64,000 bases of DNA from Waddliaceae bacterium (GTDB lineage: Bacteria > Chlamydiota > Chlamydiia > Chlamydiales > Waddliaceae). Position 1 is the first letter of the stretch. Every line of letters begins with the position of its first letter. The position numbers and the translations under genes are program-made. Of the stretch, positions 1,006 to 3,183 are shown one piece after another. The DNA lies in assembly GCA_963724325.1 (NCBI GenBank), contig CAVRUH010000007.1:256001-320000 (forward strand), read 5' to 3'. The notes under the pieces are model-generated. The model searched no databases and had not been told where the DNA came from. It was given only the letters and a program-made list of their open reading frames with translations.

Positions 1006-1359
1006 GGCAGGATATGAAGGATGTAGGCGGAGGATAGGAGGCAGTGGCGTCAACTTAAAGAAAAATCTATAATTTTTGTCTATATAGACAAGAGGTAGGT
1101 TTTGGAAGGCTGAAGGCCGGGCTCTTAATAGCCCAGACCGCAGTGGAGCAAGCGCAAGCGAGCGGAACGGAGGTCTGGGTTGGGTGACAAATAGAACTGC
1201 GAGGGCTGAAAGCCCGATACATCAAATGACGGCTATTAATGAGTCGGGCTTTCAGCCTTCCAAAACCTACCTCTTGTCTATATAGACAAAAATTATAGAT
1301 TTTTCTTTAAGTTGACGCCACTGCCTCCTATCCTCCGCCTACATCCTTCATATCCTGCC
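1006..1359. repeat. Long perfect inverted repeat (109-bp arms) enclosing a REP-like loop; right arm continues at 3184 beyond the inserted element
   Basis: 1006-1114 is the exact reverse complement of 1251-1359. The loop contains GGGCTGAAAGCCC and AGCCCAGACC...GGTCTGGGTT hairpins. Confidence 0.95.
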
Positions 1360-2945
1360 CCATCACTACTCAATTGGCAATTTTCATAAAGCATTTTCGG
1401 TGATATGCAATGCATGATTTTTACCTCGCCTTTGGTTATGATAATTTTTTCAACTATTAAACGCACTAGTTTTTGCTTCTCATTGAATGGCAAATCTGGA
1501 GCCGATTTTTTAACTCTTTCTAAAATACTTTCAAAAGCATGCTCCCAACCGGATCCTATTTCTTTCATAAGTTTTAAATTTAATCGTTCCTTTTTCTCGT
1601 TCTCAAGTTCGCCTCTTCTTTTTTCTAACCCCTGGGCTCTTTGACTTAGAGAAGTTAAATCTAATAAACCACTTTGATATGCATCTAAAAGTCGCTCTCG
1701 TTCTTTTATAAGCTTTTCTAATTCTTTTCTCATCGAAATTTCCTGCCTCTCGATTTCCTCGATATTTCCGCTTTCCTTTTCTCTTCTTTTAAACTCTTCC
1801 TGCAACATAAATGGATTTTGAAGCATTTGAATTATTTCATTATAGACCAAATCATCGAGCTCATCCTGCTGTATATATCCATTAGAACATTTTGGTATTT
1901 TATTATCCGAATGGCTTCGACAATGATAATAATTTTTACTTATTCCCTTATATCTTCTCATTCTTTTATAAAATTGACAACCACATTCGCCGCACGTGAT
2001 TAATCCTTGAAGCAAGGAAGGTTCTTTGGTATTTCTTAAGGCTAATTCTTTATTTTTATTTATATATTCCTGTGCTGTTTCAAAATCACTTTCACTAATT
2101 ATAATTGGAATATTTATCTCGTACCAAGAGTCTTCATTAGTTTTTTTTCGTGGATTTTTTGGCTTCAGCCGTCTTAAGCCTTTATAATGCCTTATTTTAT
2201 CTATACCCTCATACTTTTCTGATTTACCATAGGCTGCAGTGCCTATATAAGCCTTATTTTTTAATATCCCTAAGATGGTTGCTGGAAACCAATAGGAATT
2301 TCCTTTTGGGCTTTTAATTTGGACCTCGCTCAACCTTCGACAAATTCCATTTAATGAAAGCCTCTCATGAACATATAAATAAAATATTTTTCTTACAACA
2401 TTCGCGTCTGTTTCAACGATTTCAATCACCGTTTGACGTTCATTTTTTATCCTCTGATAGCCATATGGTAGCTTAGGAAGAATAGCTGGATCTCCGCTTT
2501 TTGCTTTATGAATAGTACCTCGACGAGATCGATCTAATATTAATGCTCTTTCATATTCAGCAAAAATCCCCTGAAAATGAGTAAACATTATTGCTTCAGG
2601 AGTGTCACCTTGAGGAACATTTCTAATGAAAAGAACCTTCACTCCACATCGTCGAAATTCATCTAACAAAATAAGTTGATGAGGATAATTTCTGGCTAAC
2701 CTATCTGGTGCATAGATCAAAATCGCGTCGACAGACTCTGTTCGTATCAAATCTCGTAAATCATCTAAAGCAGGTCTTTGAAGACTTTGACCACTTATAC
2801 CGTTATCAAGAAAAAGCCACGTTTCTGGAATTTGATATCCTTCTTTGAGTCCAAATTCTCGAAGAACCAATTCTTGACTTTCGATCGTTTCATCTTCTTT
2901 TTGCTTCTGTGAGGAGACTCTGGCATATATTGCGGCTTTCTTCAT
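1293..2945 (-). CDS. Large serine recombinase (resolvase catalytic domain, recombinase domain, Zn ribbon, coiled coil)
   Basis: YARVSS catalytic motif, DRLAR motif, PYGY, CGECG...C...C zinc ribbon, AGGAG RBS. The last 20 codons and the stop come from the target repeat. Confidence 0.95.
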   Translation of the reverse strand: MKKAAIYARVSSQKQKEDETIESQELVLREFGLKEGYQIPETWLFLDNGISGQSLQRPALDDLRDLIRTESVDAILIYAPDRLARNYPHQLILLDEFRRCGVKVLFIRNVPQGDTPEAIMFTHFQGIFAEYERALILDRSRRGTIHKAKSGDPAILPKLPYGYQRIKNERQTVIEIVETDANVVRKIFYLYVHERLSLNGICRRLSEVQIKSPKGNSYWFPATILGILKNKAYIGTAAYGKSEKYEGIDKIRHYKGLRRLKPKNPRKKTNEDSWYEINIPIIISESDFETAQEYINKNKELALRNTKEPSLLQGLITCGECGCQFYKRMRRYKGISKNYYHCRSHSDNKIPKCSNGYIQQDELDDLVYNEIIQMLQNPFMLQEEFKRREKESGNIEEIERQEISMRKELEKLIKERERLLDAYQSGLLDLTSLSQRAQGLEKRRGELENEKKERLNLKLMKEIGSGWEHAFESILERVKKSAPDLPFNEKQKLVRLIVEKIIITKGEVKIMHCISPKMLYENCQLSSDGAGYEGCRRRIGGSGVNLKKNL

Positions 2946-3183
2946 GATGGAGCTCCTGATTGATGGATGACCGAATTGATATTGTGCTGTTGAGCAATAT
3001 CGCTAAGCCCTTGATTAATTTTGCTCTTTGATTCCTCTGAGGGTGATATTCGAGTACAATTTTTTGGACTTTGATGCATTTTGACAATGTTCTGAGCCTT
3101 GTTTCGAGAAGAATATTTACCGATTGTACTTCTATCAAACATTTTCTCAAAACAAATTTTGCCAATTGAGTATTGATGGGGTG
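1356..3183. mobile_element. Minimal integrative element encoding a large serine recombinase, inserted in a palindromic repeat
   Basis: Ends CCCCATCACTACTCAATTGGCAA (1358-1380) and TTGCCAATTGAGTATTGATGGGG (3159-3181) are 23-bp inverted repeats with one mismatch. TG is duplicated at 1356-1357 and 3182-3183. Removing the element restores ATCCTTCATATCCTGCCGCTTGCGATC, found intact at 54212-54238. Confidence 0.9.
2942..3181 (-). CDS. Open frame filling the element's upstream end; either a ~66-aa gene (ATG 3142) or the circle-specific C-terminus of the recombinase
   Basis: Stop-free from the element end (3181) to TGA 2944-2942, which overlaps the recombinase ATG (ATGA). In frame with the recombinase across the predicted circle junction. 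Confidence 0.5.
   Translation of the reverse strand, partial: PHQYSIGKICFEKMFDRSTIGKYSSRNKAQNIVKMHQSPKNCTRISPSEESKSKINQGLSDIAQQHNINSVIHQSGAPS

Follow-up and report, generated by a model that had tools for sequence, protein, structure and literature searches.

A large serine recombinase element of insertion sequence size in a Waddliaceae genome, with a conserved recombinase tail encoded across its predicted circle junction

The element, its copies and its target

The DNA considered here, hereafter the window, is a stretch of 64,000 nucleotides from a Waddliaceae bacterium of the Chlamydiota (GenBank assembly GCA_963724325.1, contig CAVRUH010000007.1, positions 256,001 to 320,000 of the forward strand). 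Near its left end is an element the size of an insertion sequence (IS), made up of a large serine recombinase gene and a leader of 236 nt (Table 1). The recombinase frame has no stop anywhere inside the element. In the chromosome, the protein is finished by host DNA; when the two ends are joined in silico at one TG core, the frame continues through the junction into the leader. About 20 residues of this circle-only tail are conserved among relatives. The leader also holds a second conserved gene in an overlapping frame, orfB, which is a candidate directionality factor.

The original prediction claimed that a single frame covers the whole circle, and this is borne out. The joined circle is 1826 bp, and a minus-strand frame of 609 amino acids (aa) starts at ATG 2945, with codon 530 spanning the core. 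The 79 codons beyond the junction end on a TGA (2944–2942) that overlaps the recombinase ATG. The source genome has seven copies of the element, with sequence differences at 0 or 3 positions, and all seven predict the identical 609-aa circle frame. The ends are fixed independently in two ways. All seven copies are broken at the same core dinucleotide, with CA/TG present at both ends in every one, and the left arm of the palindrome that holds the element retains an intact copy of the target. As integrated, the seven copies encode products of 533, 533, 533, 534, 534, 548 and 550 aa, which rules out the 550-aa form as a fixed product. The 20 host-coded residues and stop described in the original prediction are thus correct for the window copy and are not a general feature of the element.

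By its sequence and its predicted fold, the recombinase belongs to the large serine recombinases (serine integrases). It matches the Pfam families Resolvase, Recombinase and Zn_ribbon_recom (E 6e-32, 1e-17 and 3e-13), with the catalytic domain at residues 4–152 and the large-recombinase domains after it, and its structural model matches the SPbeta, phiC31 and Bxb1 integrases by Foldseek. The sequence YARVSS is nearly invariant across 118 homologs. The closest named relatives are in Chlamydiota genome bins, and nearly all of the 120 database homologs listed end a few variable residues past the same junction motif. The 530-aa portion that the element encodes is modelled with a zinc domain that closes with strands at residues 498–504 and 507–512 and is followed by an unstructured end.

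All seven copies are inserted at the same CA of a genome repeat that occurs at 187 sites (at most 5 mismatches in 32 nt), mostly as inverted pairs (of 113 neighbours at most 400 nt apart, 91 are inverted). At 152 of these sites, the recombinase would end within five codons. The repeat is about 40 nt genome-wide; in the window it is found at 835–1359, 3184–3252, 5436 and 54006–54249, and the repeat unit there is a long palindrome, with 35-nt direct repeats at 835–1015 and a 119-nt inverted repeat. The unit has no Rfam match. Several relatives with a short leader are likewise inserted in palindromic repeats, one of which starts with GTAG, as repetitive extragenic palindromic (REP) elements do. 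Three copies of the element lie within 6 kb (G000:C1:24026-29732), and two of them, alike in carrying three identical substitutions, occupy opposite arms of a repeat pair and point towards each other over a gap of about 70 nt. This clustering suggests local hopping.

Table 1. Positions of the element, its genes and its target halves in the window
Feature	Position	Strand	Remarks
IS-like large serine recombinase element	1358..3181	-	1824 bp; identical ends in 7 copies and terminal inverted repeat
Recombinase gene as integrated	1293..2945	-	550 aa; 529 codons and first base of codon 530 inside element
Crossover dinucleotide at recombinase gene 3' end	1356..1357	TG on +, CA on -	bases 2–3 of codon 530
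Crossover dinucleotide, opposite element end	3182..3183	TG	same break in 7 copies
Inverted-repeat arm within recombinase coding sequence, one half of the attachment site attP	1358..1384	-	23-nt arm, 96%
Inverted-repeat arm, opposite end, second attP half	3155..3181	-	encodes tail codons 1–9
Circle-only tail	2942..3181	-	79 codons and TGA
Conserved tail core, codons 9–15, F/I-x-F-E/D-K/R-x-hydrophobic	3137..3157	-	predicted beta strand; strand in P0207 model
orfB, candidate directionality factor	2890..3087	-	65 aa from TTG at 3087 (inferred start); overlaps tail and recombinase start
Promoter-like site over tail codons 11–20	3123..3150	-	-35 at 3150–3145, -10 at 3128–3123; 10/12 match
Target half giving residues 531–550 and stop (TAA 1295–1293)	1241..1355		part of repeat-containing palindrome arm
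Other target half, REP-like repeat	3184..3252		repeat comparison
Unbroken mirror arm with empty target copy (985–1016)	905..1124	+	repeat comparison

The circle-only tail in relatives

The survey of relatives comprises 166 fetched loci and the window, 167 in all, with a near full-length gene in 135. Inverted repeats were called in 96 loci, with the core placed 13 nt outside a conserved CAAT motif; the 39 loci without an end call are in part cut by contig ends and in part members of more distant groups. Eleven of the 96 were dropped by eye. Nine of these had an end call off register or in a palindrome, L151 is out of phase as called, yet has a 30-codon tail, and in L036 the right-hand core creates a stop that the left-hand core would avoid. 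The tail motif is nonetheless recognisable in three of the 11. The remaining 85 loci have 59 distinct left ends, and these are the non-redundant set used below: 26 close relatives with a short leader (about 215–285 nt) and 33 distant relatives with a long leader (about 570–620 nt). In a quick tree, the two sets fall on opposite sides of a branch with support 98, the placement of one long-leader row (L057) being unsure. A search of the phylum returned 4 of 401 genomes; scans with single sequences gave no match in genome contigs and none in viral contigs.

Under the rule of CAAT plus 13 nt, the two cores of an element are identical in 32 of 38 close loci and 29 of 47 distant loci. The core dinucleotides are unequal in 6 of the 38 and 18 of the 47 (L145, L150, L115, L122, L134 and others), mostly by one base. 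This may represent a tolerance of core mismatch, which is unusual for serine integrases, or wrong end calls.

The check proposed with the original prediction was to circularise homologous elements and see whether the frame stays open, and just past the junction it does. In 59 of the 59 non-redundant relatives, the recombinase frame reaches the right end without a stop, crosses the junction in phase 0 and is open for at least 18 codons beyond it; in a few of these, at contig edges, no recombinase stop is visible at all. The other two frames are open for at least 18 codons in 16 and 3 of the 59. The family-wide symmetry of the ends, which marks the attP arms, extends to about nt 27, and the arm therefore excludes the tail from codon 10 on. 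In the long clade, codon 11 is Phe in all 33 (24 TTT, 9 TTC), codon 13 is Arg in 29, written with five different codons, and all 33 have V, L, I or F at codon 15. The ratio of nonsynonymous to synonymous differences (pN/pS, from uncorrected pairwise proportions among kin) for codons 9–15 is 0.42 in the long clade and 0.54 in the short clade, versus 0.86–1.54 in shifted frames. About 20 tail residues are conserved and the residues past them are not; in all 33 long-leader relatives, the tail stops after 18–32 codons. On this comparative evidence, the crossing into the tail is real and selected, not chance. Of the 79-residue tail originally described, about the first 20 residues are therefore upheld; it fails as a unit, as the tail frame over orfB shows no amino-acid constraint (pN/pS 1.13).

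The claim that the circle and the integrated forms encode different proteins is supported by this conserved and selected arrangement and also by junction-spanning proteins in relatives. A profile of the long-clade tail gave 155 hits among 7994 scored proteins. Among the 120 hits listed, there are two, P0207 and P0167, whose recombinase C-terminus continues exactly into the tail, and most are host frames entering the left end. Both P0207 and P0167 are proteins of relatives, and neither is from the window element. The other three members of the P0207 cluster have differing host tails, and P0242, a protein with a host tail, is nearly identical to P0207 up to the junction.

In an AlphaFold model of P0207, residues 283–290 form a strand, the block having a predicted local distance difference test score (pLDDT) of about 77 after a linker below 50. 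In most rows of the alignment used for this folding, 8 linker residues were displaced into tail positions 1–8. Since a strand call requires a partner strand, the tail likely docks on a sheet of the domain. The last strand of the zinc domain in the model aligns with residue 533 of the SPbeta integrase. Alignments to known integrases end at model residue 240–248, and none covers the tail.

Other searches for the joined form were negative. There is no junction within the survey loci when the 85 elements are compared with the 167 sequences, and a degenerate pattern for the distant-clade junction was found in no viral contigs, in 0 of 5 genomes and in 0 of 401 genomes. A search for free circles among plasmid records gave 23 matches at E 1e-60, all in replicons of more than 120 kb. 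None of 8000 scored proteins was a longer protein with a close-clade tail.

The long-leader clade has a target of its own, the GTPQGGVISP motif found in reverse transcriptase genes of the group II intron type (L066, L098, L125, L131 and others). The insertion is in this motif at 33 of 43 rebuilt long-leader sites, the two orientations being split 19 to 14, and at none of 31 short-leader sites. In L125, the match to Pfam RVT_1 is split at profile positions 124 and 126. Group II intron terms are not mentioned in eight supplement files of Durrant et al. (PMC10083194). The long-leader elements also carry, upstream of orfB, a further gene for a protein of about 110 aa (L131:1025-1354, L127:1016-1348, L139:1016-1378), with weak matches to helix-turn-helix and ribbon-helix-helix (RHH) families; RHH_3 is above the cut-off in one of the three. 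It is probably a regulator that the short clade lacks. A further distant group, at about 33% identity (L038, L040, L041, L043, L045, L046, L056, L095), has a fixed C-terminal peptide and no inverted-repeat call. These may have a permanent extra strand, or they may cross their own end in another way.

orfB, the leader and a possible switch

The original prediction described a one-gene circle with no separate directionality factor, and it allowed that the second open frame of the leader (2890–3201) might be chance. The one-gene reading and the chance reading fail, because the leader is coding in two frames and the second frame holds orfB, conserved in both clades and under purifying selection; with orfB as a candidate, the lack of a separate factor is not supported either. 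The pN/pS of orfB is 0.63 in the short clade (24 of 26 anchored, one wrongly) and 0.35 in the long clade (26 of 33 anchored), and start candidates are present in 26 of 26 short-leader elements. The alignment of both clades shows first a strand motif and then a helix motif. In the source genome, orfB is confined to the seven element copies, and neither it nor the tail has a Pfam match above the cut-off. Modelled as a complex, the core of orfB and residues 300–530 of the recombinase, its C-terminal half, score 0.60 versus 0.00 for the best control, with at least 91% of contacts in common between runs and a partner pLDDT of at least 64. Of 157 solved pairs, 116 passed the mark for a complex, as did 2 of the 215 mismatched ones. 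The predicted binding is graded weak because only 18 solved pairs, together with both mismatches, passed at a score of 0.60 or less. In the distant clade, a motif chosen by eye afterwards, [FY]x[FY][DE]R, is shared by 22 tails and 32 orfB sequences out of 33 each, and it has a single hit in 18,236 recombinase residues.

The leader also has a promoter-like site lying over part of the tail. There are nine promoter-like sites in the region, not above the number in shuffles (mean 7.4). Among close relatives, TAnnnT is at the same -10 place (nt 54–59) in 20 of 26, with the -35 at nt 32–37. In the long clade, none of 33 has a -10 at that place, and the best promoter-like sites are further in, downstream of the tail motif. 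Tail codons upstream of the promoter-like site would be transcribed from that site only by running round the circle.

Whether the tail frame reaches the recombinase start, as it does in the window, depends on the clade. Circle length is 2 modulo 3 in 25 of 26 short-leader elements, and the tail stop overlaps or abuts the recombinase start in 17 of 26: by 4 nt in 14, by 1 nt in two, and two bases before it in one. Of the remaining short-leader circles, one runs 12 nt past the start and eight stop at 19–60 codons. Where the tail frame runs under orfB, for 40 codons, 14 of 25 elements keep it open, compared with 1.1 expected when orfB codons are resampled synonymously. In the short clade only, therefore, the length of the tail is upheld as an open frame and not as a sequence. 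Re-initiation at the ATGA is plausible from this layout in the 17 close relatives. The expectation that homologs would keep the frame open to the start codon is thus realised in these 17 and in none of the 33 long-leader relatives. In one short-leader locus, L017 (L017:166-400), a single TAG at tail codon 20 is followed by a frame that is open again to the start region, and its kin L020, L030 and L087 have the tail frame open throughout. We read L017 as a recent loss of the wrap-around in which the conserved strand was kept.

Taking these features together, the balance tips modestly towards a switch between insertion and excision, in which orfB drives excision and the circle-only tail strand occupies the orfB site. 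This reading joins the observed layout, selection and junction proteins to the predicted strand and the predicted binding, and from them we infer a competition and its direction. In the integrated state, transcription from the promoter-like site in the left end would yield orfB together with a recombinase that has a random host tail. The orfB product would bind the zinc-domain/coiled-coil region, as is weakly predicted, and switch on attL x attR excision. In the circle, transcription would cross attP to give the long form, whose tail strand would dock on the zinc-domain sheet and exclude orfB, leaving an enzyme that only integrates. In the short clade, the tail frame, open across orfB to the recombinase's own ATG, would hinder initiation of orfB and couple a further round of recombinase synthesis. 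When the element inserts at the CA/TG of a host repeat, the tail is lost again, as is seen in the copies. The direction proposed has its basis in other integrases. The SPbeta factor binds where the extreme C-terminus of the integrase lies and contacts F532 and F534 (bioRxiv 10.1101/2025.01.03.631226). According to PMC12286644, most directionality factors would, by prediction, extend the zinc-domain sheet by one strand, and additional strands at the C-terminus have been proposed to block the factor site. Because of those contacts and the strand-addition proposal, the tail-less integrated enzyme would be able to excise and the tailed circle enzyme would integrate.

Several points weigh against this switch. 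The relatives are kin, and the counts over them are therefore not independent events. P0207 and P0167 may come from a circle, a tandem dimer or a chimeric assembly. The junction of the window element, for which a look at sequencing data had been proposed, was not found in 8 of the 19 listed runs; the data were contigs, which drop rare forms, and the absence proves little. The motif common to tail and orfB in the distant clade is present in none of 26 close-clade tails and none of 26 close-clade orfB sequences, and comparing the profiles of tails and orfB gives no significant match (probability 0.3). In the short clade, the -35 and -10 boxes overlap the tail motif and explain part of its conservation, so protein and promoter constraints both act there. 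The wrap-around step is not general, since the start codon is missed in 8 of the 26 close relatives and in every one of the 33 distant ones. Finally, that the tail and orfB would use one site is our reading of two separate predictions.

The alternative that survives best, although we consider it unlikely, is a switch of activity or stability like that of the phage Mx8 integrase: the tail would complete the zinc domain or protect the protein, the integrated form would be weak or short-lived, and orfB would act independently. The tail conservation and the P0207 strand fit this equally, the truncated Mx8 integrase is less active (PMC4701971), and the 152 repeat sites that end the protein within five codons would produce such short forms. 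However, the 530-aa model already has a complete zinc domain ending at strand 507–512, known integrases end at that same strand with nothing aligned to the tail, and the motif common to tail and orfB in the distant clade is left unexplained. It is improbable that the tail is instead a tethered miniature directionality factor, with the long form from the circle promoting excision of other copies or blocking immediate re-insertion. The tail does resemble the orfB strand in the distant clade, and factors fused to an integrase C-terminus drive excision (PMC12286644); yet the tail lacks the helix of orfB, the helix being the essential part of the SPbeta factor (bioRxiv 10.1101/2025.01.03.631226), and survival of the circle would require integration. 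Least credible is a tail that is a by-product, its motif kept as DNA and its frame opened by the overlap with orfB: codons 1–9 do lie within the inverted repeat, the promoter boxes do overlap codons 11–20 in the close clade and residues past about 20 are not conserved, but all 59 relatives are in phase, the orfB sequence predicts stops in the tail frame and not their absence, and the synonymous variation at codons 9–18 in the distant clade, with no -10 at that spacing, rejects a pure promoter by-product there.

Returning to the competition between tail strand and orfB, we tentatively extend it to a more general statement, which we hold with somewhat less assurance than the switch itself: a widespread family of IS size may sense its own topological state at the level of the protein, circularisation adding a tethered mimic of the factor's anchor strand that locks the enzyme into integration. 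In the short clade, the wrapped frame would also mask the factor gene and restart on its own ATG.

As to the surroundings, just outside the element is a perfect 17-bp hairpin (window 3278–3316), followed by a 101-aa HTH_3 (XRE-type) gene (3385–3690). As far as the flanks are displayed, the two are not common to the flanks of the other copies. An open-ended reading frame at window 2–787 on the minus strand, rich in Gln, Asn, Ala and Ser, starts just past the repeat array.

Relation to known systems

As read from its sequence, the window element fits among the integrases that have attP within their own gene, with the crossover in coding sequence and the C-terminus swapped. The nearest case is Bacillus phage vB_BsuS-Goe14, in which attP is inside the serine integrase gene and a switch between long and short forms was speculated on (bioRxiv 10.1101/2021.11.22.469490). 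Goe14 is a large phage with one target gene that loses 131 aa, and the portion of that preprint consulted reports no directionality factor and no test of a mechanism. The window element, in comparison, is 1.8 kb and multi-copy, with a conserved piece of about 20 aa, an overlapping candidate factor and a frame that closes on its own start. The streptococcal integrative and conjugative elements at rumA likewise have attR within a serine integrase gene and a different C-terminus in the excised form; they are large conjugative elements, and the passage on them has no conservation analysis, partner gene or mechanism (PMC4701971). Mx8 and SSV also have attP inside the integrase gene, and the Mx8 enzyme exchanges its last 112 residues for 13, with a drop in activity (as cited in passages of PMC4701971 and PMC4383910). 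Unlike the window element, these two use tyrosine recombinases, with unrelated chemistry and directionality control.

The SPbeta (SprA/SprB), phiC31, Bxb1 and LI systems share with the window element the domain order, the fold, a 2-bp core, symmetric arms and a small partner predicted at the zinc-domain/coiled-coil region, but they have the same protein in both states. In serine integrases, the attP x attB reaction runs one way and is reversed by a directionality factor, a role for which orfB is the candidate here. In the SCCmec recombinases, fixed extra C-terminal strands have been modelled that could block the factor site (PMC12286644), whereas the strand of the window element would come and go.

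Among transposable elements, Tn4451/Tn4453 with TnpX and Tn5397 with TndX are transposons moved by a large serine recombinase via a circle with a 2-bp core. They are larger and carry cargo, and their circle junction makes a promoter rather than an enzyme end; we know of no directionality factor for them. The promoter-like site of the window element is inside its left end. The IS607 family has a small serine transposase with inverted domain order (PMC4058570). The window element is not a member, its catalytic domain (4–152) preceding the large-recombinase domains. IS110/IS1111 elements form circles, and some target REP repeats, but they use a DEDD recombinase and a non-coding guide RNA. Membership there is excluded as well, by a protein with serine recombinase domains only and a leader that is coding in two frames; there is no Rfam match in 800–3400 at E up to 1.

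The comparison bears on a possibility that PMC12286644 leaves as a question, namely that the directionality-factor site of a serine integrase is blocked when the C-terminus is extended, and on the switch between long and short forms speculated on for Goe14. The element offers a natural pair, the same enzyme with and without a strand of about 20 residues, together with a 65-aa candidate factor, in less than 2 kb, so that both can be tested directly. If the switch is true, the tail would be a portable peptide that renders an integrase insensitive to its factor. It would also mean that enzymes of this family as annotated in genomes lack their real end, which matters when they are mined as tools. 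The family supplies recombinases aimed at host repeats in the short clade and at the group II intron reverse transcriptase motif in its sister clade. We found no account of this IS-sized family, the conserved tail or orfB in the literature searched, most subscription journals and ISfinder lying outside that search. An attP inside an integrase gene is already in print; what that search did not turn up is a family of IS size in which the crossing into a conserved tail is combined with orfB.

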